Below, one piece after another: positions 26,278 to 47,108 of a stretch of DNA of 64,000 bases. The notes under the pieces are model-generated. The model saw only the letters and a list, made by a program, of their open reading frames with translations. It was not told where the DNA came from and ran no database searches. Made by a program: the position numbers and the translations under genes. The DNA is from an uncultured Gammaproteobacteria bacterium (GTDB lineage: Bacteria > Patescibacteriota > Microgenomatia > Daviesbacterales > UBA10151). Every line of letters starts with the position of its first letter. Position 1 is the first letter of the stretch. The stretch is taken from positions 51,945 through 115,944 of the forward strand of contig CAYMRP010000001.1 in NCBI GenBank assembly GCA_964392925.1. Reading direction: 5' to 3'.

Positions 26278-26281
26278 ATTT

Positions 26282-26911: not shown

Positions 26912-26920
26912 ACGAAGGCC

Positions 26921-33229: not shown

Positions 33230-34177
33230 CTATCCCTCAAGAATCTTCTTATAAAATTTGAGGTTGCTTACCTGTTCTTTTATTGTACATAGATTCTTTT
33301 TATTTCCCAAAAAAGCCGTAATTTCTTTATAAATTCCTGGTTTATAATCCAAATCCAACTTGTCATCTATGCTGTAATCCTTAACCTTAAAACTTCCTAC
33401 ATCCTGAATCTGCAATTTCTCCAATGGTTTAAAAATTAATTTATGTTTGGCGGTATGTATCTCAACAGCCCATCTTCCTGCCGATTTCCAATTCGCATGA
33501 TATGAAAAAGGGATTCCTTTTTCTAGCAATCCAGAACCAGTAAAGATTGCTCCAGCTGGATGCCATGACAATGTTCCTGAAACTTCACAATTCATTTTTA
33601 CAGGAATACCAGCTATGTAGAATGCCATATCAATAACATGAGTAGAGTTATGTAGAAACCAGTTTTCCTTAACCCCTGGAGCTCTGACTAAAGGCACAAT
33701 TTTGTGAACAGCTTCTGTAAAATCAAAATAAAGCGATAGCACTCCGCCGTCTTTTTTAATGATCTTGGAGGCTTCCTCAACTGAAGCATAAAACCTTCTG
33801 TTGTATCCCAAGTAAACATTAGTCCCTTTTTCCTCAGCTGTCTTTGCTACTTTCTTGATTTCCTGAAAATCTGCTCCTCCTGGTTTTTCAGCTAGGATCT
33901 CTTTAGTCCCGGCCTTTATCAACTTAATTGTAGTCAATCCAATCTGATCTTCGCTTACTGCCACGATTGCACTTTTTGGAACATTTAAATTCTCAGCTAA
34001 ATATTTTTCAATCCCTCCTCTGAATACTTTTACTCCAATTTCCTTTTCAAAATTATTAGCTGATTCTTCTCCTCGTCCAACAACAATAAATTCCTGTTTT
34101 AAAGCTCTCAATACCTTTGCAAATTCAACGCCCATGTAACCTGATCCGATTAGTAATATTGGTTGATTATTTTTCAT
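33230..34177 (-). CDS. Gfo/Idh/MocA family oxidoreductase
   Basis: 315 aa. The N-terminal Rossmann motif reads ILLIGSGYMGVEFAKVL. Confidence 0.65.
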   Translation of the reverse strand: MKNNQPILLIGSGYMGVEFAKVLRALKQEFIVVGRGEESANNFEKEIGVKVFRGGIEKYLAENLNVPKSAIVAVSEDQIGLTTIKLIKAGTKEILAEKPGGADFQEIKKVAKTAEEKGTNVYLGYNRRFYASVEEASKIIKKDGGVLSLYFDFTEAVHKIVPLVRAPGVKENWFLHNSTHVIDMAFYIAGIPVKMNCEVSGTLSWHPAGAIFTGSGLLEKGIPFSYHANWKSAGRWAVEIHTAKHKLIFKPLEKLQIQDVGSFKVKDYSIDDKLDLDYKPGIYKEITAFLGNKKNLCTIKEQVSNLKFYKKILEG

Positions 34178-34179
34178 TT

Positions 34180-35157
34180 TTAAGTAAAAGGATACAAATT
34201 CTGTTTTTTATCAGAATTCCTATTTATAAATCTTAACAGCTCCTCAAGTAGTTCTAAATGCACTTTTACAGATTGTTGGTAAGTCGGGAGACCACAACTT
34301 CCTGTTTTAAGAATATCTTCAACAACAATATTTGTCATATCACTTTGAAAGAGTAATGATTCTGGTGAGGGTTTAATCTCCCATTTTGGGGAATTAGAAA
34401 TAAATGTTTCTCTGGTCGTCTCATTAGCAGTTGCTTGAAAACTATCTGAACTAATTTGAGCTATGATCGGAGCTTCGCCTTCAGGGAAATCTGAGAAAAC
34501 TCCGGTACTGCCATTACTAAAATTAACTATCATAGTCCCAGTCAATTCTAGAAAGCCTGCTCTTTTGCTTTGCAAAAGATTCTTATCAAGTCCGGTTGTA
34601 TCAACTTTAAATTCATAATCATCTAGAAGAAAGGCCATATGATCAATAAAATGTATGGCTTGAGTGGCGATACCAAACCGGCTGCCAGTTAACAGATAAA
34701 CAATTCTCTTCCCTTTAAATTTGTCCTTTAACTTTTGATAAAAAGGGGTAACTCTCATACTGCAATTAACCCAGGCTTTAATGTTTTTCTTCTCCAGCAA
34801 TCTATTAACAAAATCGTAATCATTCTTTTTCTGAAAAAGTAATTTCTCAAAAATAATGTTTCTCACCTCAGATTGGGTTAGTAATTCCTCAGTAACTTTA
34901 CGGCGGATATTTGAACTAGTAGCGATTATAGCCACATCAACCTGAGTCGATATCATCCTGGAATCTGTCAAAAAAATAATCTGATGTTTACTATGATTTG
35001 GTATTTGCTTGAATCTTTCTTCAGCAACTTTTAACGATTCGATAGAAGGATCAAAAACCTCAATAGATAGAGGACTATTTATCTTAGCCAGCCCCTGCAG
35101 ATGCCGGCTGCCGATATTACCTGCACCAATAAGAACAATATTCTTAGGCGGTTTCAT
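34180..35157 (-). CDS. Gfo/Idh/MocA family oxidoreductase
   Basis: 325 aa (IVLIGAGNIGSRHLQGL). Confidence 0.65.
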   Translation of the reverse strand: MKPPKNIVLIGAGNIGSRHLQGLAKINSPLSIEVFDPSIESLKVAEERFKQIPNHSKHQIIFLTDSRMISTQVDVAIIATSSNIRRKVTEELLTQSEVRNIIFEKLLFQKKNDYDFVNRLLEKKNIKAWVNCSMRVTPFYQKLKDKFKGKRIVYLLTGSRFGIATQAIHFIDHMAFLLDDYEFKVDTTGLDKNLLQSKRAGFLELTGTMIVNFSNGSTGVFSDFPEGEAPIIAQISSDSFQATANETTRETFISNSPKWEIKPSPESLLFQSDMTNIVVEDILKTGSCGLPTYQQSVKVHLELLEELLRFINRNSDKKQNLYPFT

Positions 35158-36433
35158 TTTTCTCCCAAACAGGGTGTCTTAATTCCCATTGATTATTCTC
35201 CAATTTCCAAAGATGGGGAGAGCGTCCTCTATTAATTAACTTCCAAAATTCTTCTTCAGTTAATTCCATATACTCCAAAATCTGTTTAAAGTACTTAGCA
35301 GGAAACTCTGTATCAAATTTTTTGACTAGAGCCACCCCTTCTTCCCGGGTAATCTTTCTGTTTCTAATTTCTTGTGATGAATCATAAGAAGCCCTTCCTA
35401 AGCCAAACTTTATCAGTGTTGTGTAATAATGAAACGGATCTATTCTGTCATCAATCGAAGAGTACTTTGAGTAAGATCCTTCTGTGCGTTCAGTATTTGG
35501 TTTAAAACCTGTGTGTTCTGCAGCATAATAGTAACATTCCTGTGGGTCCCATTTTAAATAGTACCCAAGATAATGAACTGTCGTCCCGACCTTTTTAATC
35601 AGCGACTTGTCGGCAGGTAAATAGGGAAGTAGATCATTCTCCTGCAATTTATATTCCTTAATAAGATCACGCGCTTTTACCCCTCCTAAAAATACTTTAT
35701 TTAAATCAATATCGTCCTCATAAAATTTTGGATCCATAGTCGGTTTAAAATTTTCCTTAATATTATGCCCGTACTCTGCCTGGTTTTCTCCGTAAAAAAT
35801 TAATGGCACCTTATGTAAAACTGATTGCTTTGAAGCAATATGTCTTTGTCCAACAATAAAAGGTTGAAATGGGTGAAGCAGATTCACAAACGCCAGTTTT
35901 GTTAAAAGTCTGTGCAATTTACCGTTAGGCGAAAATAATACATTATCAAAACCACTATGAATCCAAGATTTAAAATTTTCAAAACCAATATCAGTATAAA
36001 TATGTGGAGCCCATGTCACAGTTAGCGGATTCATTTTATACTTGTATTTAAGTATGTGTGAAGTAAAAGCACTGTCTTTACCTCCTGAACCAGGAACTAT
36101 GCAATCATAGTTGCCTTTTTTACTTCTATAAAAGTTACACAGCTTAATCAATTCTTTTTCTCTTTTTTCCCAGTCAATCTCCTGATCTTTAATATCTGCA
36201 TATCTGCATGCTGAGCAAACACCTTCTTTGTCCATTGCGATTGTCTCTTTTTTATTCGCCTGCTTATTCTTAAATTCGACTGTCGAGTTTGGTCTTTGAT
36301 TTGAAATAATGCATCTTGTACAAAATTTAACTTGAGACGGAAGTCCATAAAGAGCCTTTAAGTTTTTAGTTTTAGTAGGGGAGAATTGAGTTAGTTCTGA
36401 TTTTTTAAGACCGGCTGTTATAAAGTTATCCAT
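35144..36433 (-). CDS. N-acetyl sugar amidotransferase (WbpG/WbuX/PseA family, PP-loop ATPase)
   Basis: 429 aa. The PP-loop reads CIVPGSGGKDS and the N-terminal cysteine-rich region reads CTRC ... CSAC. Confidence 0.7.
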   Translation of the reverse strand: MDNFITAGLKKSELTQFSPTKTKNLKALYGLPSQVKFCTRCIISNQRPNSTVEFKNKQANKKETIAMDKEGVCSACRYADIKDQEIDWEKREKELIKLCNFYRSKKGNYDCIVPGSGGKDSAFTSHILKYKYKMNPLTVTWAPHIYTDIGFENFKSWIHSGFDNVLFSPNGKLHRLLTKLAFVNLLHPFQPFIVGQRHIASKQSVLHKVPLIFYGENQAEYGHNIKENFKPTMDPKFYEDDIDLNKVFLGGVKARDLIKEYKLQENDLLPYLPADKSLIKKVGTTVHYLGYYLKWDPQECYYYAAEHTGFKPNTERTEGSYSKYSSIDDRIDPFHYYTTLIKFGLGRASYDSSQEIRNRKITREEGVALVKKFDTEFPAKYFKQILEYMELTEEEFWKLINRGRSPHLWKLENNQWELRHPVWEKNETA

Positions 36434-36439
36434 TAGTAG

Positions 36440-37138
36440 TTAATCTCGCACAATTTTTTTATCAGAACATCTCTCTACAAATTTTCCAAAATTTCTATAA
36501 ATCTCGGGGCCATCTTTACCACTCTTTTCAGGGTGAAACTGAACAGCAAAAACATTATTCTTTGAGACAGCACTTACAAACTCAAACCCCTCGTAATTTG
36601 TAGTCGTAGCGATAATATCACGATCCTCAGGAATGCAAAAGTAGGAATGTACAAAATACATATAATCGCTATTTTTAAATCCTTTAAACAATGATGTTTC
36701 CTTTTTGATTTCAATTTTATCCCAGCCAATATGAGGTATTCTCATTCTCTCAGTCGTATCAGGTGTATTGTTAAACTTCTTAACAGATCCCTTAAAAACT
36801 CCCAAACCTTGATGTTCTCCAAATTCCGTACTCGTCTCAAACAACAACTGCATTCCTAAACAGACACCCATAAACGGTTTATTCTTCTGAATGTGATTTT
36901 TTATAGCCTGTGTTAAACCCAGCGAATCCAGATTCTTCATGGCATCCGCAAAGGCCCCAACCCCAGGCAGTATTATGCCATCGGCCTCATCTAGATCCTT
37001 AGGATCAGAAGTTATCTTTACATCGATTCCTACATATTCGCAAGCATGTGCCACTGAAAAAAGATTACTCAATTTAAAATCAATAATCACAATGTTCAAT
37101 TTTCTAAATGTATTACTGTCTTTATTTAAGATCGGCAT
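36440..37138 (-). CDS. HisH-like glutamine amidotransferase (WbuY-type, paired with the amidotransferase above)
   Basis: 232 aa class-I GATase (GVCLGMQLL, catalytic Cys; HVQFHPEKS). Confidence 0.75.
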   Translation of the reverse strand: MPILNKDSNTFRKLNIVIIDFKLSNLFSVAHACEYVGIDVKITSDPKDLDEADGIILPGVGAFADAMKNLDSLGLTQAIKNHIQKNKPFMGVCLGMQLLFETSTEFGEHQGLGVFKGSVKKFNNTPDTTERMRIPHIGWDKIEIKKETSLFKGFKNSDYMYFVHSYFCIPEDRDIIATTTNYEGFEFVSAVSKNNVFAVQFHPEKSGKDGPEIYRNFGKFVERCSDKKIVRD

Positions 37139-37968
37139 GAAACCCCATTTCTTTTTAAATACTTTTTCACTTCCTCAACAGAACTTATTTTTATATTTTT
37201 ATTCGACAACCCGCTTTTTATAAAATTATTACTTCCTTGTTCAAGATCAACATCTCGGCTCATTCTCTCAAGAGCACCATAGTGAAGCATTGAGGCAATA
37301 GCAATTCCACCGACTCCATTAATCAAACAAGCATCCTTTATGTCATCCAATTTTCCTGCACCTCCGTGTACCACGATCGGAACATTCACAGCCCTTGCAA
37401 CGGCTTTGATTAAATCGGTATCAAAACCCTTTCCTGTACCCTCCTTATCAACCGACGTAAGAATTATTTCTCCGGCTCCCAGACTCTCCACCTGTTTTGC
37501 CCATGCTATAACCTCAAGTCCTGTCTTTTCTCTGCCATTATCAGTAAATGCATAATAATTACCATCGCTTTGTTTGATTGCCTCAATCGAAACGACAAGA
37601 TTAGCTGACCCAAAAAGATTGGCCGCTTCAGAAATTAGTTGCGGATTCTTGACAGCAGCAGTATTAATAGAAACTTTATCTGCTCCGGCCCGAAACATAG
37701 CTTGCATATCTTGAATACTTCTAATGCCTCCTCCAACTGCCAGTGGTATGAAGATCTCCTTAGCAGTTCTGGTAATTATTTCCTGCAAACTATTTCTTCC
37801 GTAAAGAGAAGCCACCACATCCATATACAAAAGTTCATCAGCTCCATTATCAAAATAGTATTTTGCATATTGCTCGGGTCGACCTAGAATTCTCAGACCT
37901 TCAAGATGCATACCTTTCACTAAATTCGGCCCTTTAATATCAAGTCTTGGGATAATTCTTATATTCAT
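37126..37968 (-). CDS. HisF-like cyclase subunit (WbuZ-type)
   Basis: 280 aa TIM barrel (RIIPRLDIKGPNLVKG; VGGGIRS; HGGAG). Confidence 0.75.
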   Translation of the reverse strand: MNIRIIPRLDIKGPNLVKGMHLEGLRILGRPEQYAKYYFDNGADELLYMDVVASLYGRNSLQEIITRTAKEIFIPLAVGGGIRSIQDMQAMFRAGADKVSINTAAVKNPQLISEAANLFGSANLVVSIEAIKQSDGNYYAFTDNGREKTGLEVIAWAKQVESLGAGEIILTSVDKEGTGKGFDTDLIKAVARAVNVPIVVHGGAGKLDDIKDACLINGVGGIAIASMLHYGALERMSRDVDLEQGSNNFIKSGLSNKNIKISSVEEVKKYLKRNGVSCRS

Positions 37969-38813
37969 AATGATTCTTTCCGAAGAAAATTCTCAAAAGT
38001 TTTCTTAAGTCCTGATTCCAAAGAATACTCGGGCAAAAATCCGGCAGCTTTTATAATTTTCCCATTATCACCAACAATGGACTTTTTTTCCAACATTTCT
38101 ACTCCTTCAATCCTCTTTAATTTTATTTGTCCTGTCTTTTCTACTTCTGATATTAATTCGTTTATAGAGTATCCGCGCCCGCTGCAAATATTGAATATCT
38201 CGACTTGAAATTCTTGATTATTAATAATCAAGAATTTGAGATACTTCGCCACATCTTCAACAAATATATAATCCCGGATCTGATCTCCACTATTATTTAC
38301 CGAGAACGGTAATTTATTGTAAGTAGCGCTAACTATTTTTTGCACAATGCCTAAATTCTTCACATCACCATAAACATTCCCAATTCTCGCAATAGTTAAT
38401 AGCTTATTTTGTTTCCTAACAAATTGAATTAACAATGTCTCTTCCTTAGCTTTTTGCTTTTCGTAATCTGTAATAGGATTAACTTCTGATTCTTCAGAAT
38501 GCTTTCTTAAACTGTCCTTATATAGGAGTAGGGTAGAGCCAAAAATTATTCTCTTTATATCCTGACTATAATCCTGAATATATTTGATTAATTCTAGATT
38601 TGGCTGAGTCAAAATTATAACTAAATCGCACTGATCTAATAAATTCTCCTTCGAACTAAATTTTATATATTTGACATTTTTAAACCTAAACTTCGGTGAG
38701 CTTTTGTTATAGATAACCCTAACTTTTAATTCTGGAGTTTCCTGCAACAGTTTAACTAGATACCCCCCAATAAATCCATTCCCTCCAAACACCGCTACAT
38801 TTCTTAACGCCAT
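37965..38813 (-). CDS. NAD(P)-dependent sugar reductase/epimerase (short SDR, RmlD-like size)
   Basis: 282 aa (VAVFGGNGFIGGYLV). Confidence 0.55.
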   Translation of the reverse strand: MALRNVAVFGGNGFIGGYLVKLLQETPELKVRVIYNKSSPKFRFKNVKYIKFSSKENLLDQCDLVIILTQPNLELIKYIQDYSQDIKRIIFGSTLLLYKDSLRKHSEESEVNPITDYEKQKAKEETLLIQFVRKQNKLLTIARIGNVYGDVKNLGIVQKIVSATYNKLPFSVNNSGDQIRDYIFVEDVAKYLKFLIINNQEFQVEIFNICSGRGYSINELISEVEKTGQIKLKRIEGVEMLEKKSIVGDNGKIIKAAGFLPEYSLESGLKKTFENFLRKESL

Positions 38814-38816
38814 AAT

Positions 38817-39968
38817 CTAGTATGTTATCACTTTTTGGATCGGCGGCAGCTCGATAGTTTCTAAAATCCTAACCACCTTCTCCGCAGTATTCCCAGCATC
38901 ATACGGATTCTTACCATTATGTACCTTATTTATAAATTTCTTATCAAACAAACATCTTTCAATCGCATTCATAATTTCTTTTTTATCATAATCAACATCA
39001 ATTGTATTAACTCCTTTTTCTCTAAATTGTTCACGCGTTCCGATATTAACTGTTGGTAATTTTAACGAAGGAGCTTCGTGAATCCCGGCTGAAGAATTGC
39101 CCACCAAGACTGACGCAATATTCATTAGTCTCAGAAAATCTTCATAATCAATATGAGGAAAAGAATTAATTCCTGATTTTTCTATATACTTAACAATTCT
39201 GCCTCCTCCAGCATCATTATTTGAATAAACAGCCAAAGCCTCTGTGTCATGTTTCTGATTCATTTCTTTCACAGCATCAATAGTTTCTTTAATTTGCGAC
39301 TCCACTTTATCAACCTCAGTCGTAACCGGGTGCTGCAAAATAATAATTAACGGTTTTTTATAATCAAAGTTATACTTTTTGGCTAAAGATTCTTTTGATG
39401 AATACGAAATATTATGAATGGTATCCAAACTTGGACTTCCAACATTAAATACATATTTAGGATTCTCACCGAGTTTAATAATTCTATTTTTACTTCTCTC
39501 TGTCGCCGCAAAATGAATATGGGCAAACTTTGTCATACCATGTCTAATAACTTCATCAACGGTTCCTGACACTTCACCTCCCTGGATATGAGACACAACA
39601 GTATTAATATGCATTCCTGTAATTGCGGCCGCAAAGTTAGCACCAATATCAAATCCAGAAAAAATAACATCGGGTTTTAATTTCGGGAAAATATCCGCAA
39701 ATGCAACTAAAGCTTTACCCATCCCCCTAACCATAGACGCACCATCATCGTGATCTTTCTCGCTAAATATAGGCACTAACTTATCAATTCTAAATCCATC
39801 CTGAAGGATATTCTTTTTTGTTTCACCATACTTTTTTAATAAATGCATCCCTGTCACAACTAATTGGAGCTCTAACCTCGGAGATTTTTGAACCGCTTTC
39901 ATAATTGGTTTTAAACGGCTGTAATCAGCCCGTCTTTCTGTGATAAATAATATTTTTCTTTTTTTCAT
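38817..39968 (-). CDS. UDP-N-acetylglucosamine 2-epimerase, hydrolysing type (NeuC/LegG family)
   Basis: 383 aa. The N-terminus ILFITERRADYSRLKPI matches the NeuC-type TGTRADxxKLxP region. HIQGGE is also present. Confidence 0.65.
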   Translation of the reverse strand: MKKRKILFITERRADYSRLKPIMKAVQKSPRLELQLVVTGMHLLKKYGETKKNILQDGFRIDKLVPIFSEKDHDDGASMVRGMGKALVAFADIFPKLKPDVIFSGFDIGANFAAAITGMHINTVVSHIQGGEVSGTVDEVIRHGMTKFAHIHFAATERSKNRIIKLGENPKYVFNVGSPSLDTIHNISYSSKESLAKKYNFDYKKPLIIILQHPVTTEVDKVESQIKETIDAVKEMNQKHDTEALAVYSNNDAGGGRIVKYIEKSGINSFPHIDYEDFLRLMNIASVLVGNSSAGIHEAPSLKLPTVNIGTREQFREKGVNTIDVDYDKKEIMNAIERCLFDKKFINKVHNGKNPYDAGNTAEKVVRILETIELPPIQKVITY

Positions 39969-39980
39969 GTTGTGAAAATA

Positions 39981-40829
39981 CTAAAGAGGTTTTTCTAAAA
40001 CAAATCCAACAGCTCTGTTTCCAAATCCTCCAATATTATAATTCACAAACACCTCCGGTAAATTTGCATCATTCTTAACTTTGCGGTTTTCCGGATTGTC
40101 TGTTTTTATAATAATTTCTTGAATAATTTTAAATCCAGATTTCTTAATAAATTTCTCCCATTCAAATAGTCTATATTCATGTTCGCCATTTTCCCTTCTG
40201 GTTAGTTTAATTCCTGCCGGTCTAAAATTATTCTTTAAAAATTCTTCGCTATAAACTATATTTAACATTCTCTCGATCTCTTTATCCGGCGTATCATTAT
40301 TATGAAACTTATCAACAAAGATAAATCTACCTCCCGGTTTTAAAACTCTTAACGCTTCTTTTAAAGTTACAACAGGATTCAGTGAGTGATGCATCGAGAA
40401 CCAGCAAGTTGCAAAATCAAGAGATGAATCTTTGATATTTAAATTATCAAAGTCGCCAATAACTGATACAACTTTATTTCTTTGGGGTTCATCTAGAATC
40501 TTATTAATTACAATTGGTTGACAAAGAGTCACTACACTTTCCACCAACTCTACACTATAAATTTTCTTGACCTGTTCCTTTTTAGCGATAGTAGCGCTTA
40601 TGCATCCAACACCAGATCCTAAGTCGATACCTTTACCATAAAATGATTCCCAGCCTTCCGGGATATGCAAAAAAGTTTTTTTGACATCATCAGGCGAAAT
40701 ATAAACATAGTCCGAAATTAGCGCGTTATAACCTTTTTTGGATAATTTTTGCGCCAGCAACTCATTCCCTTTATATTCCTGATTATCTATATTAAAGCCA
40801 ATTTTCCATCTTTGAATTTTAGACTTCAT
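39981..40829 (-). CDS. Class I SAM-dependent methyltransferase
   Basis: 282 aa (GIDLGSGVGCIS ... LKPGGRFIFVD). Confidence 0.6.
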   Translation of the reverse strand: MKSKIQRWKIGFNIDNQEYKGNELLAQKLSKKGYNALISDYVYISPDDVKKTFLHIPEGWESFYGKGIDLGSGVGCISATIAKKEQVKKIYSVELVESVVTLCQPIVINKILDEPQRNKVVSVIGDFDNLNIKDSSLDFATCWFSMHHSLNPVVTLKEALRVLKPGGRFIFVDKFHNNDTPDKEIERMLNIVYSEEFLKNNFRPAGIKLTRRENGEHEYRLFEWEKFIKKSGFKIIQEIIIKTDNPENRKVKNDANLPEVFVNYNIGGFGNRAVGFVLEKPL

Positions 40830-41878
40830 TTTTTTATCTTCAAATCACTCCATTTTATTTGAACATCATTAGGAATATCTTTTAGAGCCACTTTCCCCAG
40901 AACTTTTTTGAAATCAACAGCTTTTATCTGACCAGTTCCAGGCCTTTTAACCCAAATATTATCTTTAGTGAATTTCTCTCCTTTTTTTATTTCCTTTATC
41001 GAAACAACACAGGAATAAGCAAAATCTATAGTCGGCTGTTCTTCTTTTAGAATCTCCTTTTTACCGCCTAATGATTTATGAATAGCTGCAGACCCAATTA
41101 TTAAATCTTTTAATTCAGCGGGATCAATTGAAATAGCAATATCCGGCCCTGCCCATTTTTTACTAGAAGTAAAATGTTTCTCTATTAAAGAAGCCCCAAG
41201 TGCCACAGCTCCAAAAGAAGTATAGTTGCCGATCGAATGATCCGATAAACCAATTGGAATTCCCGGAAAAGCTTTCATAAGTTCTGCAATCCCTCCCAAT
41301 CTTACTTTTTCATAAGGGGTAGGGTAGAGCGAGGTACAATGAAAAAGCGCCAGCGGAGTATTGTGTTTTTGAATTGTTTTAACCGCAATTTTAATTGAGG
41401 GAATATCATTCATTCCAGTTGAAAGAATAATCGGTTTCCCAAAAGAAGCAATATGATCTATCAACGGATAATTATTGCACTCACCAGATCCTATTTTAAA
41501 CGCCGGCACCTTCATTCTATTTAACCTGTCAGCTGCGGCTCTGGAAAATGGTGATGATAAATATATCATTCCTAAATCTTCTACATACTTTTTTAATTTA
41601 ATTTCCGCTTCCTCCGAGAGAGCGCATCTCTGCATGATTTCATAAATTGATTCTTTAGTATGACCGGGAACTACTTTCTTAGCCTCTGCAATCATCTCAT
41701 CATCTATAACATGAGATTGAAATTTTACACACTCAGCCCCAGCCCTTTTAGCGTCATCAACCATCTTAATAGCCTTTTTAAAACTACCTTCATGATTAAT
41801 ACCGATTTCTGCAATCACAAATGGGGTAAAATCAGGTCCAATTTTTCTTTTAGAAATAGTTATAAATGGTTTTGCCAT
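40826..41878 (-). CDS. N-acylneuraminate-9-phosphate/nonulosonic acid synthase (NeuB/LegI/PseI family with C-terminal SAF domain)
   Basis: 350 aa (PFVIAEIGINHEGSFKKAIKMVDDAKRAGAECVKFQSH; C-terminal SAF-like region). Confidence 0.75.
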   Translation of the reverse strand: MAKPFITISKRKIGPDFTPFVIAEIGINHEGSFKKAIKMVDDAKRAGAECVKFQSHVIDDEMIAEAKKVVPGHTKESIYEIMQRCALSEEAEIKLKKYVEDLGMIYLSSPFSRAAADRLNRMKVPAFKIGSGECNNYPLIDHIASFGKPIILSTGMNDIPSIKIAVKTIQKHNTPLALFHCTSLYPTPYEKVRLGGIAELMKAFPGIPIGLSDHSIGNYTSFGAVALGASLIEKHFTSSKKWAGPDIAISIDPAELKDLIIGSAAIHKSLGGKKEILKEEQPTIDFAYSCVVSIKEIKKGEKFTKDNIWVKRPGTGQIKAVDFKKVLGKVALKDIPNDVQIKWSDLKIKK

Positions 41879-41942
41879 ACAATATTGATAGTTCTAACAT
41901 GTTTAGATTTTCAGTTCAATATGAAAGTGTATAATCTCCCTA

Positions 41943-42890
41943 ATGAAAATTGTATTTTTCGGACTGGGATCAATAGGCCAACGACATGCCCGGCTTCTAA
42001 AAGAAAATTATCAGCATCAGCTTTTCGCTTTCCGTTCCGGAATTAACAAATCCCCAAACAATTTAGGAATAACTGAATTAAATAATTGGCAGCAAATAAA
42101 AAAAATTAACCCCGAAGTGGTTTTTATCACTAACCCGACATCTCTTCATATAAAAACTGCTTTAAGGTGCGCTCATCTTGGAGCCAAGCTTTTCATCGAT
42201 AAACCAATCGGTAGTAGTCTAACAGGACTTGATGAGTTACTAAGTGTTATAGAAAGTAAAAAACTAGTCTCATATGTTGGTTACAATCTCCGTTTTCATC
42301 CGGTAATCATCAATCTGAAAAAATATTTTAAAACCAATAAATTTTTGCATATGCGAATTACTGCGGCTTCATATCTCCCTAATTGGAGACAGGGAACTGA
42401 TCACAAAAAAAGTTATCGTTCAAACAAACAAATGGGTGGGGGGATTATTCTCGATCTGTCACACGAAATTGACTATGCTGATTTCTTGTTGGAAGGCATT
42501 ACAACGATTAGAGGTCAATTTTCAAAAAGAAGTAATTTAACAATTAATGCCGAAGACTATGCTGATATTTTGATAAATTCAAAATTGGGTCCAGCAAACT
42601 TACACATCAATTTTTTAAGTCACCAAAATCAAAGAACAATCGAAATCGATTTTGAAAAAATGACTATCTCAGCCGATCTGATTAATTCAACAATCAAAAA
42701 ATTTAAAAAGGAGAAATTGATTAGTGAGCAAAGTTTTAATGTTGAAAGAGATTCAATTTTTAAGAAACAGCTTGAATATTTCTTTAAAAATATTGATAAT
42801 CCCAAAATGACTAACAATCTCACCGACGCAGCCAGACTTTATAAAAAAATAATCTCATTTAAGAATAGTGAAATTAACAAAAATGGATAA
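41943..42890 (+). CDS. Gfo/Idh/MocA family oxidoreductase
   Basis: 315 aa (IVFFGLGSIGQRHARLL). Confidence 0.6.
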   Translation: MKIVFFGLGSIGQRHARLLKENYQHQLFAFRSGINKSPNNLGITELNNWQQIKKINPEVVFITNPTSLHIKTALRCAHLGAKLFIDKPIGSSLTGLDELLSVIESKKLVSYVGYNLRFHPVIINLKKYFKTNKFLHMRITAASYLPNWRQGTDHKKSYRSNKQMGGGIILDLSHEIDYADFLLEGITTIRGQFSKRSNLTINAEDYADILINSKLGPANLHINFLSHQNQRTIEIDFEKMTISADLINSTIKKFKKEKLISEQSFNVERDSIFKKQLEYFFKNIDNPKMTNNLTDAARLYKKIISFKNSEINKNG

Positions 42891-44391
42891 TATTTTAATA
42901 ACAATTTGCGCCCGGGGTGGCTCAAAAGGTGTAAAAGGTAAAAACATCCGCAATCTAAACGGTAAGCCGCTTATCTACTACACAATTAAACAAGCTTTGG
43001 AATGGGGAAAAGCATCGAAAATCGTAGTCACTACCGATTCAAAAATTATTGCTGAAATAGCAAAATCTTTTGGAGCCGAAGTTCCTTTTCTCCGCCCTAA
43101 GAATCTATCAACCGACACCGCCCCGACACTTCCGGTTCTAACCCATGCCTTACTTGAATCAGAAAGAATATATAAACAAAAATTTGATTTACTTATAGAC
43201 CTGCCCGTAACAGCTCCTGTTAGATCAATTAAAGATATTGAAAATTCCTATAAACTTTTTAAGAAGAAAAATCCCAAAAACCTCGTCACTGTTACACCGT
43301 CTCACAGAAATCCTTACTTTAACATGTTGGAAATAAACAAAAAGGCTAGAGTTGAATATTCCAAACAAGGATCTTTTACCCGCCGCCAGGATGCGCCGCA
43401 AGTTTACGATATGAATAATTCAATCTATATTTATCAAAGTGATTATCTCCGGACTGATGGGATTAAGGATAAAATTTCTGACGACACAATTGCTTATGTG
43501 ATGGATCCAATATCTGCAATTGATATCGATACCGAAACAGACTTTAGAATTCTGGAAGCCTTAGTAAAAGATTCTGTAGTTAAAATTGATAATCAGAATC
43601 CTAAAAATGACTCGACTAAATTCTCTCTTTACGGCAAAGTCGCATTTGTAAATGGTGGAGCCGGATTAATCGGTGAGCAAATCGTTAAACAGTTTACTGA
43701 AGCTGGAGCTAAAGTAATTTTGCTGGATATAAATAAAAAGAAATCCGTTCAAATCGCAGAACAATTAAATGAAAAAGGCGGCGATGTAAATTTTGAAATC
43801 TTTGATATTACTAAACTTGATTCAATAGACAAAACAATCGATGCTTTATATAAAAAATATGGCCGGATAGATATTTGGGTTAATACTTCTTTTCCTAGGA
43901 CAAGTGATTGGGGCAAGAAAATTGAAGATTTTCCACTCGAGTCTTTCCAAAAGAATGTTTCAATGCATCTAAATAGTTATAGCTGGATCAGCCGTAAAGT
44001 TTGTTTAGTTATGAAAAAACAAAAAGGCGGCAGCTTAATTAATTTTGGTTCAATCTACGGAGCTGTTGGCGCAAACTTTAATATTTATGAAAACACAAAA
44101 ATGACGAGCGCCTTTGCTTATTCTGCAATAAAAGGCGGCATAATTAACCTCAGCCGTTATTTGGCCTCATACTTTGGACAATATAATGTTAGAGTCAACA
44201 CAATCTGTCCAGGCGGAATTTTTGATAACCAGGATGAAACATTTGTTAGTAACTATTCTAAACAAACACCATTAAAAAGAATGGGCCAGCCGGAAGAAAT
44301 CGCTCCCGTCGTTTTGTTTCTGGCATCAGAAGCCGGATCGTATGTTACCGGCGCAACCATAATGGTCGATGGGGGATGGACAGCTATATGA
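42868..44391 (+). CDS. Fusion protein: N-terminal CMP-nonulosonic acid synthetase (acylneuraminate cytidylyltransferase family, ~235 aa) joined to a C-terminal short-chain dehydrogenase/reductase (~255 aa)
   Basis: 507 aa. The N-terminal half has NILITICARGGSKGVKGKNIRNLNGKPLIYYTI. The C-terminal half has AFVNGGAGLIGEQI (Rossmann) and YSAIKGG (YxxxK). Confidence 0.7.
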   Translation: MKLTKMDNILITICARGGSKGVKGKNIRNLNGKPLIYYTIKQALEWGKASKIVVTTDSKIIAEIAKSFGAEVPFLRPKNLSTDTAPTLPVLTHALLESERIYKQKFDLLIDLPVTAPVRSIKDIENSYKLFKKKNPKNLVTVTPSHRNPYFNMLEINKKARVEYSKQGSFTRRQDAPQVYDMNNSIYIYQSDYLRTDGIKDKISDDTIAYVMDPISAIDIDTETDFRILEALVKDSVVKIDNQNPKNDSTKFSLYGKVAFVNGGAGLIGEQIVKQFTEAGAKVILLDINKKKSVQIAEQLNEKGGDVNFEIFDITKLDSIDKTIDALYKKYGRIDIWVNTSFPRTSDWGKKIEDFPLESFQKNVSMHLNSYSWISRKVCLVMKKQKGGSLINFGSIYGAVGANFNIYENTKMTSAFAYSAIKGGIINLSRYLASYFGQYNVRVNTICPGGIFDNQDETFVSNYSKQTPLKRMGQPEEIAPVVLFLASEAGSYVTGATIMVDGGWTAI

Positions 44392-45386
44392 GAGATTATA
44401 AAAAAGCATTTCAAAACAAAAGAATATTAGTAACCGGAGGAACCGGCTCAATTGGTACTGAAATCGTCCGTCAACTTTTAAAATACAGTCCAAAACAAAT
44501 TAGAGTTTTCTCCAGAGATGAGCACAAACAACATCTCATGCAAAACGAGCTTGGCAACCCTAAAAACAACAAGATTCTTCGTTTTCTAATAGGAGACATT
44601 CGGGATAAAGAGCGTTTGAATCGGGCCTTCAATGACATAGATATCGTTTTTCACGCCGCCGCTTTAAAACATGTCCCTTTTTGTGAAGCAAATCCTTTTG
44701 AAGCTATGAAAACCAACGTTTTGGGAACCCAAAATGTTATTGAACTAGCAATTGATCACCGAATCGAAAAAATGGTTTCTATCTCAACTGACAAAGCCGT
44801 CAATCCCAGTACTTTTATGGGAATTACCAAATTAATGTCAGAAAGAATGGTCATAGCCGCACCTAACTATTCAGGCCATCCGGAAATAAAATTTGCTGTA
44901 GTCCGTTTCGGTAACGTTATAAATTCCCGTGGTTCTGTAATTCCTTTATGGATCGATCAAATTAAAAAAGGCGGCCCTGTTCTTGTCACCGATAAAACCA
45001 TGGAACGGTTCTTTATGACCATCCCCGATGCTGTAAATCTGGTGTTTTCTGCTGCATCTCAAATGTTAGGCAGCGAGATCTTCGTCCTAAAAATGCAAAA
45101 GTATAAAATCTATGATATCGCCCAGGAATTAATTAAAAAATACGCAGCTGGTGGAAAAGTGAAAATAAAAATAGTAGGAGCCCGAGACCGTGAGAAAAGT
45201 GATGAGTATCTCTTCACTGAAGACGAAGCCAAACTAATGCTGGAATCCGGTCCCTTCCACATCATCCTTCCCAATAAGGACCTCTATCAAAAAAGACAAA
45301 ATAAATATAATTCCAAAATAAAATCCCCCAATCAAACCAGCATCTTCAGCGCCCTAGAGCAGCTTGACCTGACAAACCCACTCTAG
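44376..45386 (+). CDS. UDP-N-acetylglucosamine 4,6-dehydratase (PseB/FnlA/CapD family)
   Basis: 336 aa (RILVTGGTGSIGTEIVRQLL; VFSRDEHKQ; FHAAALKHVP). Confidence 0.7.
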   Translation: MDSYMRDYKKAFQNKRILVTGGTGSIGTEIVRQLLKYSPKQIRVFSRDEHKQHLMQNELGNPKNNKILRFLIGDIRDKERLNRAFNDIDIVFHAAALKHVPFCEANPFEAMKTNVLGTQNVIELAIDHRIEKMVSISTDKAVNPSTFMGITKLMSERMVIAAPNYSGHPEIKFAVVRFGNVINSRGSVIPLWIDQIKKGGPVLVTDKTMERFFMTIPDAVNLVFSAASQMLGSEIFVLKMQKYKIYDIAQELIKKYAAGGKVKIKIVGARDREKSDEYLFTEDEAKLMLESGPFHIILPNKDLYQKRQNKYNSKIKSPNQTSIFSALEQLDLTNPL

Positions 45387-45419
45387 ACAAACAAAAAAAT
45401 CCTGTTAGAATCCCATTTA

Positions 45420-46672
45420 ATGAGTTACAACGACCGAAGAGAAGCTTTTGTAAGTAAGAGAGTAGCAAGTGACCCTACTTTTGAAAAAGTAACACAACTT
45501 TCAATCCCGCAGAATATTTCATTTGATAAATTAGGAGCTTGGGAGGGAATGCTTGCCAGAGAACCTTTTACGACACCTACAATATTGGCATCTAGCCGTG
45601 ACACTGGAGAAACAAAAGTAGTTAGCAAAGCTATGGATGAATTCCATAGACGGGGATGGAAGACTGAGTTTATGGCAGTTGGAGACGGCTTGCCTTTATT
45701 AGAAGAAAGTGGGTACTCGAATAAACGGGGCGGAGAACCAAGGGTGCAGTAGTCACAGGATTTTCAGAACAAGATAATCTTGCAGCAGCAATGCATCTTA
45801 CAAGCCATAAAATTGGGGTAGAACATTATAGGATTGAAGACTTTGATGGAGCTCTAGGGGGTAATATGCAGGACTACTATGGTGCAGACTTTGGTCTGTT
45901 TGTACCCACAAAAGTCTTTGTGGCAAATGAATGGGCTGCGCAGCAGAACAGAAAATACTTTCATGAAAGCACAGTTGTAGTTTCTGGTCCGACTGGCATA
46001 CCAGCCCTTGACCTCGAACAGCAGTCAGCTACAAGAAACAATCTAAGAAGAAAGCTCAATATTCCTTTAGACGCTACAACTGGAGCTTGGTTTGGGCAGG
46101 TAGGCGAAGCTACTGTAAAAGCGCTTGAAATATATGTTAATGCATTAAATGAATCAGGCGCTACTCAGGATTTATTAGTAAGGTTTCACCCCAAATTCAT
46201 AAGAGCAGGTGATGTCCCCGCAGCCCTCCCCATTCTCGATAGATTTAATGGTAGGGTTCATCACGTTTCAGGGATAGATGTACCCGGAGTTAGAAATGAA
46301 AAAGTAGGCAATGTAAATGATGTTATCGACGCTATGAGTTTTGGAGGAAATGAACGCTCAACTACAGCAAATGAGTCCGCAGCACGTAGAAGACTCATGT
46401 TTAGTCTGGATATTGATGGTTTTGATACTCTGTATGGTCAGGATAAAAGTTTTGCTGTTGGGGCAATAGACAGAGGAGCCAGTCCTGTGATTAGAAGGCC
46501 GTATCAAGCAGCTGGCGTTATTAGAGAAGCCCTTTATGACAGAGCAGCCAGAGAAAAGTACTTTGGCCAAATGCAAGAATTTGAATCTGACGGGCTTGGG
46601 GCTTTTAATATTGTAAATGTCGTAGAAAAAGATATCTTCTTAGAAAGACATAAAATGCAGCCATTAAAGTAA
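45420..46672 (+). pseudogene. Compositionally atypical gene for a ~415-aa protein of unknown function, split by a 1-nt frameshift at a G4 run near position 45727 into ORFs 45420-45752 and 45791-46672
   Basis: The frame of the second ORF stays open upstream to 45725 (TGRRTKGAVVTGFSEQDNLAAAMHL), so it overlaps the end of the first ORF. Inserting one nucleotide at CGGGG joins the two frames. Local GC (~45%) and Ala/Gly/Arg-rich, Lys/Ile-poor composition differ from the flanking genes. The two parts may still be expressed, and a sequencing error is possible. Confidence 0.4.
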
Positions 46673-46701
46673 TTTAGATATTCTGTTATATTTGTTATTG
46701 A

Positions 46702-47076: not shown

Positions 47077-47108
47077 TAACTAAATTATACTTTCTTCCAG
47101 GCTAAATT

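Follow-up and report, generated by a model that had tools for sequence, protein, structure and literature searches.

A possible pathway to a 7-hydroxy nonulosonic acid encoded in a gene block without detectable aminotransferase

Described systems and their relation to the locus

Related described systems are the legionaminic acid (Leg) and Pse pathways, in which an aminotransferase and an N-acetyltransferase act where the gene block described here would use a single short SDR (sSDR). The order Gfo, cytidylyltransferase, SDR in this block has its counterpart in the PtmF-LegF-PtmA order seen in legionaminic acid clusters (PMC4481668 Table 5), and its amidotransferase and methyltransferase parallel the PtmG/PtmH pair of Leg loci. 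Campylobacter PtmH is known to N-methylate the acetamidino group. A nonulosonic acid (NulO) of the class predicted below, 5-acetimidoylamino-3,5,9-trideoxy-non-2-ulosonic acid, has been described from the O-antigen of Fusobacterium nucleatum ATCC 25586, whose repeat unit contains a NulO and two 6-deoxy-HexNAc residues. The putative neu operon of this strain contains a 4-ketoreductase-type gene (FN1685), but its gene set is unlike that of the block. Another relevant system is the pair Pen and Pal of Bacillus thuringiensis, which together generate a 4-keto-6-deoxy sugar.

Organisation of the gene block

The block lies on the window, i.e. the whole stretch of 64,000 nucleotides that was analysed. 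All twelve ORFs of the initial annotation were reproduced exactly with respect to coordinates and strand, and their domain assignments were borne out by Pfam and TIGR profile matches. The block consists of two divergent operons, in each of which neighbouring genes overlap by up to 23 nt or are separated by up to 12 nt. It is shown here with its neighbouring genes.

29017..30114 (+), Acyl_transf_3 membrane O-acyltransferase neighbouring the block (PF01757, E 1e-24)
33230..34177 (-), Gfo1, oxidoreductase of the Gfo/Idh/MocA family, terminal gene in the minus-strand operon (PF01408, 40.6 bits, cut-off 24)
34180..35157 (-), Gfo2, divergent member of the Gfo/Idh/MocA oxidoreductases, partnered with Gfo1 (PF01408, 28.8 bits, cut-off 24)
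35144..36433 (-), N-acetyl-sugar amidotransferase of WbuX/WbpG/PtmG type, converting acetamido into acetamidino groups (TIGR03573, 350.9 bits, cut-off 203.2)
36440..37138 (-), HisH-like glutaminase subunit, WbuY-type, ammonia donor (PF00117, E 1e-27; TIGR01855, 228 bits)
37126..37968 (-), HisF-like subunit, WbuZ-type (TIGR03572, 272 bits, cut-off 299.7; PF00977, E 2.5e-63)
37965..38813 (-), short extended SDR (sSDR), predicted 4-reductase (PF01370, E 1e-20)
38817..39968 (-), NeuC/LegG-type hydrolysing nucleotide-HexNAc 2-epimerase (TIGR03568, 389 bits, cut-off 236)
39981..40829 (-), class-I SAM methyltransferase (PF08241, E 8.5e-14)
40826..41878 (-), NeuB-family nonulosonate synthase (PF03102, E 6e-76, and SAF)
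41879..41942 (.), divergent intergenic region of 64 bp separating the two operons
41943..42890 (+), Gfo3, Gfo/Idh/MocA oxidoreductase resembling PtmF, encoded upstream of the CMP-synthetase (PF01408, 41.7 bits, cut-off 24; PF22725)
42868..44391 (+), fusion of CMP-nonulosonate synthetase and PtmA-like classical SDR, 507 aa (PF02348, CTP_transf_3, residues 13-187; PF13561, residues 268-505)
44376..45386 (+), soluble PF02719 UDP-GlcNAc 4,6-dehydratase (PF02719, E 3e-104)
45420..46672 (+), split gene, coding for a rare protein of 425 aa with Rossmann-like beta/alpha pattern (matches P0048)
47109..48593 (+), MOP/Wzx-type flippase closing the plus-strand operon (PF01943 and PF13440)

Between the operons a promoter-like TTTTCA-16-TATAAT was found at 41908-41935 (+), 8 nt 5′ of the Gfo3 ATG. 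As a promoter for the Gfo3 operon this site is only suggestive, because the promoter scan overall did not exceed the shuffled background.

A recurrent core without DegT-type aminotransferase

The core of NeuB, NeuC, sSDR, PF02719 dehydratase and CMP-synthetase recurred, contig extent permitting, in nine further loci, six of which carried most of the block and three the core only. Two of them (L002 and L026) lie on truncated contigs and show less flanking sequence than the others. The five core genes were contiguous in permuted order in the window and in L003, L004, L022, L023, L024/25, L026, L027 and L028. They were interleaved in a single operon in L004, L024, L026 and L028, and in L004 these five genes alone formed one compact operon.

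Neither a DegT-type aminotransferase nor a PseH/PglD-type acetyltransferase had been noticed in the initial annotation, and none was detectable across the 64-kb window. Pfam searches gave no PF01041 match among the scanned window ORFs of at least 100 aa. Three of six PMT_2 paralogs of near-identical length (483-10415) and the ORFs 10238-10597 and 41660-42046 were covered instead by a six-frame scan with a DegT HMM built from six related-locus sequences, which found no match in window stop-to-stop ORFs of at least 70 aa. Likewise, tblastn with a DegT query from a related locus returned nothing at E <= 0.01 against the window. No Hexapep or GNAT domains were found in the window, the sole acyltransferase being the membrane protein at 29017-30114. 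An aminotransferase directly adjacent to the block would point to a canonical pathway; none occurred on either flank in the window over a distance of 19 kb. For the related loci this held in part: no DegT gene was found within about 10 kb in L004, L022, L023, L024/25, L027 and L028, nor on the visible parts of the shorter contigs L002 and L026, but L003 encodes one outside the block. This gene lies about 1 kb past Gfo1 on the opposite strand, beside a GDP-fucose-synthase-like (Fcl-like) SDR, and its product scored equally on the RfbH, PseC and LegC models, below the cut-off on all of them. None of the nine further loci had a DegT gene inside the cluster. Class-III aminotransferases were found inside the NulO clusters of L016 and L027.

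The short SDR as likely missing link

The sSDR had been listed in the initial annotation without a role. The gene was confirmed, and we propose that it is the likely missing link of the pathway because of its tight and specific linkage with both the dehydratase and a separate NeuC clade, its fusion to the dehydratase in one protein, and its C4-oxidoreductase fold and triad. Judged from context and fold rather than from likeness to any characterised 4-reductase, it is predicted to be a UDP-2-acetamido-2,6-dideoxy-hex-4-ulose 4-reductase that stands in for transamination and N-acetylation. It was accompanied by NeuB and NeuC in all ten contexts examined (window included) and adjoined NeuC or the dehydratase in 10 of 10 loci. 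In L028 a gene directly following NeuC encodes the protein P0107, in which an sSDR (E 5e-39) is fused to a dehydratase (E 1e-106). The family is rare: a set of 5.8e9 proteins contained 33 homologs, and a set of 1.84e9 proteins yielded 66 representatives at E <= 1e-30. GxxGxxG, Ser93, Tyr117 and Lys121 were invariant in an alignment of 32 homologs, and all Foldseek neighbours of the AlphaFold model (pLDDT 96) were NDP-sugar C4 enzymes, e.g. GalE, RmlB and GDP-4-keto-6-deoxymannose reductase. Invariant S-Y-K triad and fold neighbours together suggest an active-looking NDP-sugar C4 oxidoreductase. The acidic pair that follows the catalytic Ser in dehydratases is missing, and the end of beta-2 usually carries no acidic residue and is often followed by Lys/Arg, which hints at the use of NADPH. 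The sSDR is the only reductase candidate adjoining the dehydratase.

The NeuC proteins of sSDR-type loci formed a separate clade with 60-82% identity among each other and at most 45% to other NeuC/LegG; the L028 NeuC beside the fusion protein showed 63% identity. No clade specific to the cluster type was seen for NeuB. This would be expected if it is NeuC that must recognise a new 4-OH, 6-deoxy substrate. The window NeuC scored only 98 bits on the non-hydrolysing WecB model, and its best PDB match was the hydrolysing 2-epimerase for GDP/UDP-diNAcBac (5xvs, 231 bits). For NeuB, assignment to the NulO synthases rather than the KDO-8-P/Kdn synthases had been named as a decisive point; it is a true NulO synthase, scoring 418 bits against NeuB of N. 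meningitidis (1xuu) versus 152 bits against PseI (8h2c), and with 381.8 bits on TIGR03569 (cut-off 399.65) and 252 bits on the PseI model (cut-off 340).

The dehydratase stayed below both the PseB (321.7 bits, cut-off 407.75) and the FnlA cut-off (240.8 bits, cut-off 730), and its PDB matches were Pen (6bwc, 241 bits), FlaA1/PseB (233), CapE (229), FnlA (224) and PglF (165). Its catalytic motif STDKA...FMGITK has a Met at the position of the PseB/Pen Tyr; this Met is kept in all sSDR-type loci except L027 (Leu). The fusion ORF scored 143.8 bits on PseF, 181 bits on FlagModPtmA and 248.9 bits on PRK09186; in L003, L022 and L023 cytidylyltransferase and SDR are encoded by two separate overlapping genes.

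Proposed pathway and alternative explanations

A CMP-activated, probably 9-deoxy, non-canonical NulO made without transamination and acetylation had been suggested from the window, and the comparison of genes across loci supports this reading through the recurrent DegT-free core, the sSDR and the NeuC clade. We favour, with moderate confidence, a self-contained pathway to CMP-activated 5-acetamidino-3,5,9-trideoxy-non-2-ulosonic acid, a product that would resemble sialic acid, would probably serve as a surface sugar and would bear a hydroxyl group at C7 in place of an acylamino group. Substrates, products, tailoring order and all stereochemistry in the following are predictions. The dehydratase would convert UDP-GlcNAc to UDP-2-acetamido-2,6-dideoxy-hex-4-ulose, the 4-keto group of which would be reduced by the sSDR, probably with NADPH, to give UDP-6-deoxy-HexNAc. 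The clade-specific NeuC would then release UDP and invert C2, NeuB would join the free 2-acetamido-2,6-dideoxyhexose with PEP to 5-acetamido-3,5,9-trideoxy-NulO, and the cytidylyltransferase domain would form the CMP-sugar. The WbuX/HisH/HisF triad would turn the single 5-N-acetyl into an acetamidino group, which the methyltransferase may N-methylate as in Campylobacter PtmH. The three Gfo/Idh/MocA proteins and the PtmA-like SDR might transiently oxidise or epimerise this nine-carbon product, perhaps at its C4. The module would be rounded off by a transferase, perhaps encoded by the split gene 45420-46672, and by the flippase and the O-acyltransferase. No biochemical description of such a route is known so far, and its genes have been found almost exclusively in uncultured ultra-small (CPR/Patescibacteria-type) bacteria.

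NeuC, NeuB and a cytidylyltransferase alone make up a complete Neu5Ac pathway, and the 418 bits to N. meningitidis NeuB, about as close as enzymes of this kind come to an authentic Neu5Ac synthase, count against the favoured reading. The block might thus yield two products, CMP-Neu5Ac (or Neu5Am) and, from dehydratase and sSDR, a separate UDP-6-deoxy-HexNAc of the QuiNAc, FucNAc or 6dAltNAc type, both destined for one glycan and one of them amidinated by the triad. Pairs of dehydratase and 4-reductase for QuiNAc/FucNAc are common (WbpM/WbpV, WreV/WreQ), and the F. nucleatum 25586 unit sets a precedent for co-occurrence of both sugar types in one glycan. We nevertheless regard this as unlikely, given the constant company of NeuB/NeuC around the sSDR and the interleaving of all five genes in one operon in L004, L024, L026 and L028. 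A NeuC clade that tracks sSDR and dehydratase would also be unexpected were the substrate plain UDP-GlcNAc, and the best solved NeuC relative takes a 6-deoxy substrate. A FucNAm-type branch, which had been offered as an alternative for triad and dehydratase, is not supported, since no second Epimerase_2-family (FnlC-type) 2-epimerase was found in the scanned window ORFs, the sSDR did not match CapF, an FnlB-type reductase of solved structure, among PDB sequences, the dehydratase scored far below the FnlA cut-off and the 2-epimerase is a hydrolysing one.

That the aminotransferase and N-acetyltransferase of a legionaminic-type pathway (to Leg5Am7Ac or Leg5AmNMe7Ac) are encoded elsewhere in the genome, with the sSDR as accessory, appears quite improbable. 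The block does contain a PtmF/LegF/PtmA-like trio, a PtmG/PtmH-like pair and a LegG-like NeuC, and the aminotransferase search covers 64 kb of a contig listed at 315 kb, so the gene may sit elsewhere. The Legionella pneumophila neuABC cluster reportedly also lies apart from bacillosamine genes, and the control locus L007 (Sporomusa) encodes dehydratase, WbuX, NeuB, NeuC, NeuA, HisF and HisH and has no DegT gene in its vicinity. However, this would leave a strictly linked and once fused sSDR without a role, the dehydratase belongs neither to the LegB type nor to the PglF-like long form, and the other sSDR-type loci are free of DegT within about 10 kb as far as their contigs reach. The L003 DegT, despite its proximity to the block, is paired with the Fcl-like SDR and fits no one model better than another. 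Very unlikely in our view is a Pen/Pal-like arrangement, in which dehydratase and sSDR would jointly make only the 4-keto-6-deoxy sugar and a Gfo/Idh/MocA protein or the PtmA-like SDR would reduce the 4-keto group later, still giving a 7-hydroxy NulO. Among solved structures Pen is nearest to the dehydratase, and the sSDR weakly matches Pal (6bwl, E 2.6e-10; Foldseek rank 27), but it has closer relatives than Pal, the Tyr in the catalytic motif of Pen is a Met in the window dehydratase, and the five-gene operon of L004 has no internal Gfo or extra SDR for the reduction. Further points against the favoured pathway are the L003 DegT, the class-III aminotransferases of L016 and L027, and the disruption of the candidate transferase gene.

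Tailoring genes and flanking genes

The WbuX protein showed 50-89% identity to its counterparts in L002, L003, L024 and L027. The methyltransferase is a candidate acetamidino N-methylase (PtmH-like role) or O-methylase; orthologs with 76-83% identity are found at the equivalent position of L002 and L003, and L024 and L027 have non-orthologous methyltransferases within the triad or next to it. Gfo1 is a candidate NulO redox or epimerisation enzyme, its best solved relative being the sialic-acid C4 oxidoreductase RgNanOx (6z3b; weak, E 1.3e-5), to which Gfo3 also had a weak match. Gfo2 had no match among PDB sequences and adjoins Gfo1 in six loci; Gfo1 pairs with it in L002, L003, L022, L023 and L024/25 (53-73% identity).

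Residues 1-109 (83% identity) and 118-425 (87%) of P0048 matched two window frames that meet near 45746; pseudogenisation or faulty assembly probably explains the split in the window genome. In L003, L022 and L023 the gene after the dehydratase encodes a divergent homolog. The 425-aa protein is a candidate NulO transferase or nucleotide-sugar hydrolase; its DTG, ED..G and HP motifs are invariant, a weak profile match to the CapG 2-epimerase was obtained (E 0.04), and its AlphaFold model (pLDDT 49) was too poor for use. The flippase showed 43% identity to that in the equivalent position of L003, and L022 also has one. The membrane O-acyltransferase shared 79% identity with the gene adjoining Gfo1 in L002, and Acyl_transf_3 genes come after Gfo1 in L022 and L023 too.

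Gene content of the block

The gene block between 33230 and 45386 probably encodes a new variant of nonulosonic acid (NulO) biosynthesis, in which a dehydration is followed by a reduction and then by late steps of the legionaminic acid (Leg) type. The block is organized in two divergent and tightly packed operons. An ORF check recovered all twelve ORFs of the initial annotation with their coordinates, and Pfam and NCBIfam searches confirmed each of its domain assignments. The features are as follows:

33230-41878 (-): minus-strand operon, from neuB (41878) down to Gfo1 (33230)
33230-34177 (-): Gfo1, one of the three Gfo/Idh/MocA proteins of the block
34180-35157 (-): Gfo2, Gfo/Idh/MocA protein
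35144-37968 (-): triad of a WbuX-type amidotransferase with HisH- and HisF-like partners
37965-38813 (-): short extended SDR of 282 aa (sSDR), predicted 4-ketoreductase
41943-48593 (+): plus-strand operon, from Gfo3 through the fusion gene and the dehydratase gene (ending at 45386) to a flippase gene (48593)
41943-42890 (+): Gfo3, Gfo/Idh/MocA protein
42868-44391 (+): single 507-aa ORF, CTP_transf_3 domain fused to a PtmA-like classical SDR

The core enzymes of NulO synthesis were all identified. The PEP-condensing synthase is of the NeuB family (PF03102, E 6e-76) with a SAF domain (PF08666); it matched Neisseria meningitidis NeuB with 418 bits and scored 381.8 bits on the NeuB_NnaB model, just under the cut-off of 399.65, versus 252 bits on PseI (cut-off 340.25). 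The CMP-nonulosonate synthetase domain (PF02348, E 6.5e-20) occupies residues 13-187 of the fusion protein and remained under the cut-off of the PseF model (143.8 bits, cut-off 205.7). The 2-epimerase is of the hydrolysing NeuC/LegG type, with 389 bits on TIGR03568 (cut-off 235.9) versus 98 bits on the non-hydrolysing WecB model. The block has all three enzyme types of the Neu5Ac pathway, NeuC, NeuB and NeuA, its NeuC being from a separate clade that is tied to dehydratase and sSDR. The CMP-synthetase and the PtmA-like SDR are encoded by two overlapping genes in three related loci (L003:4522-6068, L022:3738-5224 and L023:3531-5035), and the single ORF of the window is either a recent fusion or the result of an indel.

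Lack of amination genes and comparison with canonical pathways

The initial annotation had noticed neither an aminotransferase nor an acetyltransferase gene in the window, and this observation held, since no DegT, Hexapep or GNAT domain was found. The Pfam scan covered nearly every window ORF of at least 100 aa, and a six-frame HMM scan took in two short ORFs and three of the six PMT_2 paralogs that stand in tandem. Among the scanned ORFs there was no PF01041 match that would indicate a LegC/PglE-type DegT aminotransferase, and no Hexapep or GNAT family indicative of a LegH/PglD-type N-acetyltransferase. A DegT sequence from a related locus used as tblastn query against the window gave nothing at E <= 0.01, and a DegT HMM made from six related-locus sequences had zero matches among six-frame stop-to-stop window ORFs of at least 70 aa.

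Each of the canonical Leg, pseudaminic acid (Pse) and FucNAm pathways lacks at least one defining enzyme in the block. The Pse pathway was rejected because the synthase resembles NeuB far more than PseI and because PseC, PseH and PseG are absent, with no DegT, GNAT or MurG/PseG-type Pfam match in the scanned window ORFs. The initial annotation had also raised the alternative that triad and dehydratase belong to a FucNAm-type branch. This was rejected for each of FnlA, FnlB and FnlC: the dehydratase reached 240.8 bits on the FnlA model (cut-off 730), the sSDR did not match CapF, a solved reductase of the FnlB type, and the sole 2-epimerase is of the hydrolysing type. The FucNAm route of the Escherichia coli O145 type has FnlA/B/C companions, which the block lacks.

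Dehydratase and short SDR

The dehydratase, a soluble member of PF02719, scored below the equivalog cut-offs of PseB (TIGR03589, 321.7 bits, cut-off 407.75) and FnlA. Its distance to Pen, PseB, CapE and FnlA is about equal (224-241 bits), and PglF is more remote (165 bits). The fold and the catalytic Asp-Lys pair of the STDKA motif are shared with Pen/Pal of Bacillus thuringiensis, PseB/FlaA1, CapE/FnlA and PglF. The catalytic-motif Tyr of PseB/FlaA1 and Pen is replaced by Met in the dehydratases of all sSDR-type loci, with Leu in L027; CapE has Met at the same position of the alignment. PglF also carries Met in this motif. Unlike in known systems with PF02719 UDP-GlcNAc 4,6-dehydratases, the partner of the block enzyme is a reductase-like SDR and not an aminotransferase.

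This partner, the sSDR, belongs to a very small family: a search of 5.8 billion proteins gave 33 homologs at E <= 1e-10, and one of 1.84 billion gave 66 cluster representatives at E <= 1e-30. The GxxGxxG motif (G10/G13/G16) and the Ser93-Tyr117-Lys121 triad are kept in all 32 aligned members. The AlphaFold model is confident (pLDDT 96), and its Foldseek neighbours all act at C4 of nucleotide sugars, namely GalE-type 4-epimerases, MoeE5, GDP-4-keto-6-deoxymannose reductase, RmlB and Pal, with TM-scores of 0.83-0.87 against GalE, MoeE5 and GDP-4-keto-6-deoxymannose reductase. The acidic pair that follows the catalytic Ser/Thr in dehydratases is missing. By motif, triad, fold and the lack of the dehydratase acid/base pair, the sSDR has the features of extended-SDR nucleotide-sugar 4-ketoreductases, features that are common to reductases and epimerases. 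Since the product of the dehydratase is a 4-keto sugar that has to be either aminated or reduced, and since the sSDR adjoins or is fused to the dehydratase, a role as 4-ketoreductase appears to be the most economical reading. The acidic residue for NAD binding at the end of beta-2 is usually absent in the sSDR and often Lys or Arg is found there, a weak hint that NADPH may be used. None of the three homologs with an organism name is from Fusobacterium, most homologs carrying no name. Five relatives of 567-587 aa (P0105, P0110, P0114, P0116 and P0117) consist of two tandem short-SDR modules.

Related loci and the NeuC clade

A NeuB scan with one genome per species, together with look-ups of contigs encoding sSDR homologs, revealed nine further loci with the same core as the window. 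The whole block is found in the same gene order in L002 (NeuB 89% identical), L003 (Candidatus Daviesbacteria, 78%), L022 and L023. The other loci are arranged as follows:

L024/25: triad - methyltransferase - WbuX - NeuB - NeuC - sSDR - dehydratase - CMP-synthetase - Gfo2 - Gfo1
L026: CMP-synthetase - Gfo - Gfo - NeuB - NeuC - sSDR - dehydratase
L004 (Candidatus Nomurabacteria): only NeuB - NeuC - sSDR - dehydratase - CMP-synthetase, in one compact operon
L027: sSDR-dehydratase pair, with NeuB and NeuC divergent
L028: CMP-synthetase - NeuB - NeuC, then a single 634-aa sSDR::dehydratase fusion protein (P0107)

The closest named relatives are from Candidatus Daviesbacteria, Nomurabacteria, Saccharibacteria and 'Patescibacteria group', in addition to one MAG labelled Gammaproteobacteria, the 11-kb contig of which may be mis-binned. 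None of the nine loci contains a DegT gene inside the cluster, and none was found within about 10 kb where the contig extends so far, with the exception of L003. There, a DegT gene lies about 1 kb past Gfo1 and next to a GDP-fucose-synthase-like SDR; its scores on RfbH, PseC and LegC are equal and each far under the cut-off. This gene is unlikely to be the missing aminotransferase given its location on the opposite strand, its Fcl-like SDR partner and the lack of an equivalog assignment.

The NeuC proteins of sSDR-type loci form a separate clade, 60-82% identical internally and at most 45% identical to NeuC/LegG of other NulO clusters in the same scan. NeuB shows no such separation, the L026 protein being nearer to ordinary Leg-type clusters than to the NeuB of the window, and NeuB identity was therefore discarded as a pathway classifier. 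A distinct NeuC clade next to an unseparated NeuB is the pattern expected if NeuC must recognize a new 4-OH, 6-deoxy substrate while the synthase is permissive. The nearest solved relative of the block NeuC is the hydrolysing GDP/UDP-diNAcBac 2-epimerase, an enzyme with a 6-deoxy substrate.

Several loci encode additional functions. A formyltransferase and a polysaccharide deacetylase directly adjoin the compact five-gene operon of L004 (L004:8135-9915, minus strand), which suggests an N-formyl rather than an acetamidino variant of the same sugar. L028 (1-21905) also encodes a second Epimerase_2 protein, a second CMP-synthetase, a deacetylase and an ACP/MaoC/SDR/ACPS acyl module, and may therefore specify two NulO branches or an N-acylated variant. 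A class-III (glutamate-1-semialdehyde-aminomutase-like) aminotransferase occurs inside NulO clusters, namely at L016:4410-7417, where an APH-type kinase and a HAD phosphatase accompany it, at L027:6397-8348, where a GNAT does, and also in L014 and L018. This tailoring module is absent from the window.

Tailoring enzymes

The three contiguous genes of the triad correspond to an acetamidino-forming system. The WbuX protein scored 350.9 bits on TIGR03573 (cut-off 203), the HisH-like protein 228 bits on TIGR01855, above its cut-off, and the HisF-like partner 272 bits on the WbuZ model, slightly below 299.7. As in the block, a PP-loop amidotransferase with neighbouring HisH- and HisF-like genes is found in WbuX/WbuY/WbuZ of the E. 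coli O145 L-FucNAm system and with WbpG of Pseudomonas aeruginosa O5. The only plausible N-acetyl substrate for the triad in the cluster would be the nonulosonate or a precursor. The methyltransferase of the block is of class I.

The order Gfo3 - cytidylyltransferase - SDR (41943-44391) matches PtmF-LegF-PtmA of legionaminic acid clusters (PMC4481668, Table 5), with the SDR scoring 181 bits on the FlagModPtmA model, under its cut-off of 350. For Gfo1 and Gfo3, RgNanOx (6z3b/6z3c) was among the best solved relatives, with very weak similarity (28-30 bits). RgNanOx transiently oxidises the C4-OH of 2,7-anhydro-Neu5Ac. RgNanOx and YjhC act in catabolism at C4 of sialic acid derivatives, whereas the context of the block is biosynthetic. 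With low confidence, this resemblance in sequence might indicate an epimerisation or oxidation of the nine-carbon sugar by the Gfo/Idh/MocA proteins.

Proposed pathway and alternatives

In the proposed pathway, UDP-GlcNAc would be dehydrated to a 4-keto-6-deoxy sugar, which the sSDR would reduce to UDP-6-deoxy-HexNAc. NeuC would then hydrolyse and 2-epimerise this intermediate, NeuB would add PEP to yield 5-acetamido-3,5,9-trideoxy-non-2-ulosonate, and the cytidylyltransferase would activate the product to the CMP-sugar. The sole N-acetyl group would be converted to acetamidino by the WbuX/HisH/HisF triad, and the methyltransferase may N-methylate the acetamidino group, by analogy with Campylobacter PtmG/PtmH. 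The main proposal of the initial annotation, a 9-deoxy non-canonical NulO, thereby gains support from the comparative evidence across the related loci.

A close counterpart is the Leg locus of Campylobacter jejuni/coli (LegB/C/H/G/I/F and PtmA-H), which makes Leg5Am7Ac and Leg5AmNMe7Ac. It shares with the block a hydrolysing NeuC-type 2-epimerase, a NeuB-type synthase and a CMP-synthetase whose neighbours are PtmF, of the Gfo/Idh/MocA type, and PtmA, a classical SDR, and the block has counterparts of the PtmG amidotransferase and the PtmH methyltransferase that act on the N-acetyl group. However, the LegC aminotransferase, the LegH acetyltransferase and the PtmE nucleotidyltransferase are absent from the block, and its dehydratase is of the PF02719 type rather than the LegB type. 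Conversely, only the block has the dedicated sSDR, the HisH- and HisF-like partners and two additional Gfo/Idh/MocA genes. The predicted product would carry OH at C7, in contrast to NHAc in the Campylobacter Leg sugars.

That the block instead represents a canonical Leg5Am7Ac pathway, with the amination genes encoded elsewhere in the genome, seems improbable to us. The control locus L007 (Sporomusa) likewise has no nearby DegT gene, and in Legionella the amination genes of the legionaminic pathway stand apart from the cluster, but such an arrangement would leave the sSDR without a role. A division of labour similar to Pen/Pal, in which another enzyme performs the reduction, would have the same outcome and is rated as very improbable. 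Somewhat less remote, yet still unlikely, are two independent products, ordinary Neu5Ac or Neu5Am and a separate 6-deoxy-HexNAc. The score against meningococcal NeuB and the fact that the Fusobacterium repeat unit is of mixed composition would fit two products, whereas the strict co-occurrence of the genes, their interleaving within one operon and the separate NeuC clade tied to dehydratase and sSDR argue against them.

The proposed pathway of dehydration followed by reduction has a chemical precedent, while its enzymology is undescribed and its hosts are uncultured organisms, probably of the CPR. The sugar of Fusobacterium nucleatum ATCC 25586 belongs to the product class predicted for the block, with a single C5 nitrogen as acetamidino, 7-hydroxy and 9-deoxy. 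From its gene content, the block is predicted to make 5-acetamidino-3,5,9-trideoxy-non-2-ulosonic acid like that of this strain. According to the published gene table, the putative neu operon FN1682-FN1686 encodes NeuB, a gene annotated as dTDP-4-dehydrorhamnose reductase, a GNAT and a NeuB/CTP-transferase protein. Like the block, it contains a 4-ketoreductase-type gene (FN1685, annotated as RmlD-like) in a NulO operon and lists no aminotransferase, but it has a GNAT and no NeuC, whereas the block has NeuC and no GNAT. Judged by this table, the differing gene contents indicate that both gene sets are analogous and not orthologous. In the literature searched we found no paper describing the biosynthesis of the F. 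nucleatum sugar, and none on NulOs in CPR/Patescibacteria or on a reductase route to 9-deoxy NulOs.

Taking these observations together, we tentatively suggest that the block could be the first recognized gene set for a third NulO logic, neither Neu-type (no deoxygenation) nor Leg/Pse-type (dehydration and transamination), but with dehydration followed by reduction by a dedicated sSDR and with a co-evolved NeuC clade. The product might then be a CMP-5-(N-methyl)acetamidino-3,5,9-trideoxy-nonulosonate, possibly with a novel configuration imposed by the Gfo/Idh/MocA pair, apparently largely confined to uncultured CPR/Patescibacteria-type organisms and made by a route non-orthologous to that of Fusobacterium.

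Nonulosonic acids are major determinants of bacterial surface recognition by phages, lectins and immune receptors, and the NulO type is at present predicted from genomes by a three-way Neu/Leg/Pse scheme. If Leg-type late enzymes are indeed combined with reduction in place of amination, 7-hydroxy-9-deoxy NulOs would become a fourth predictable class, with the sSDR and its NeuC clade as metagenome marker for such clusters. The cluster would also provide an expressible enzyme set for these sugars, and hence for testing the origin of sugars of the F. nucleatum 25586 type, and would show that uncultured bacteria with small genomes invest in elaborate sialic-acid-like surface chemistry.

Flanking genes

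The gene 3' of the dehydratase is split into ORFs of 110 aa (45420-45752) and 293 aa (45740-46672) on the plus strand. Relative to its homologs of 425 aa (P0048, 83-87% identical), the sequence lacks about eight codons and shifts frame near 45746, which points to a pseudogene or to an error in the assembly. The 425-aa family has six members in 5.8 billion proteins, and a divergent homolog is found at the same position in L003, L022 and L023. The DTG, ED..G and HP motifs are invariant, and the protein shows a beta/alpha pattern; AlphaFold gave no usable model (pLDDT 49), and a search of its profile against the PDB gave a marginal match to CapG alone. It might act as a NulO transferase or as a sugar-nucleotide hydrolase. 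An Acyl_transf_3 gene and the flippase gene are conserved neighbours of the block. Directly 3' of Gfo1 and on the same strand, lies a gene (31654-33201, minus strand) for a protein of 515 aa in which about seven transmembrane segments are predicted; the protein had no family match and may be a polymerase or GT-C-like transferase. A 128-aa ORF antisense to the neuB 5' end (41660-42046, plus strand) is probably not a gene, its seeming conservation in L002 and L004 being only the shadow of the conserved neuB sequence.

A promoter and terminator scan gave counts not above shuffled controls. The GC content is even at about 35%, and the rest of the window encodes glycan functions throughout, including ArnT/PMT_2-like GT-C paralogs, a GDP-heptose pathway, a C-methyltransferase, GT2 and GT4 glycosyltransferases and an ABC-2 exporter. 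Since a Wzx-type flippase (47109-48593, plus strand) and an ABC-2 (Wzm/Wzt-like) exporter (53141-54656, minus strand) are both present, more than one route of glycan export may depend on the locus. At 483-10415 (plus strand) lie six paralogous genes in tandem, each of about 550 aa, and all three that were tested encode PMT_2/ArnT-like GT-C glycosyltransferases. With two further PMT_2 genes at 16221-18050 and 30111-31661 (both plus strand), lipid-linked-sugar transferases are unusually numerous for a single locus. A GDP-glycero-manno-heptose set at 22752-28938 (minus strand) comprises an NTP-transferase fused to a HAD phosphatase, a GmhA-like SIS protein, a GHMP kinase and two SDRs. A sugar C-methyltransferase gene (PF08421/PF08484) adjoins this set, and the same heptose genes border the NulO block in L022 and L023.
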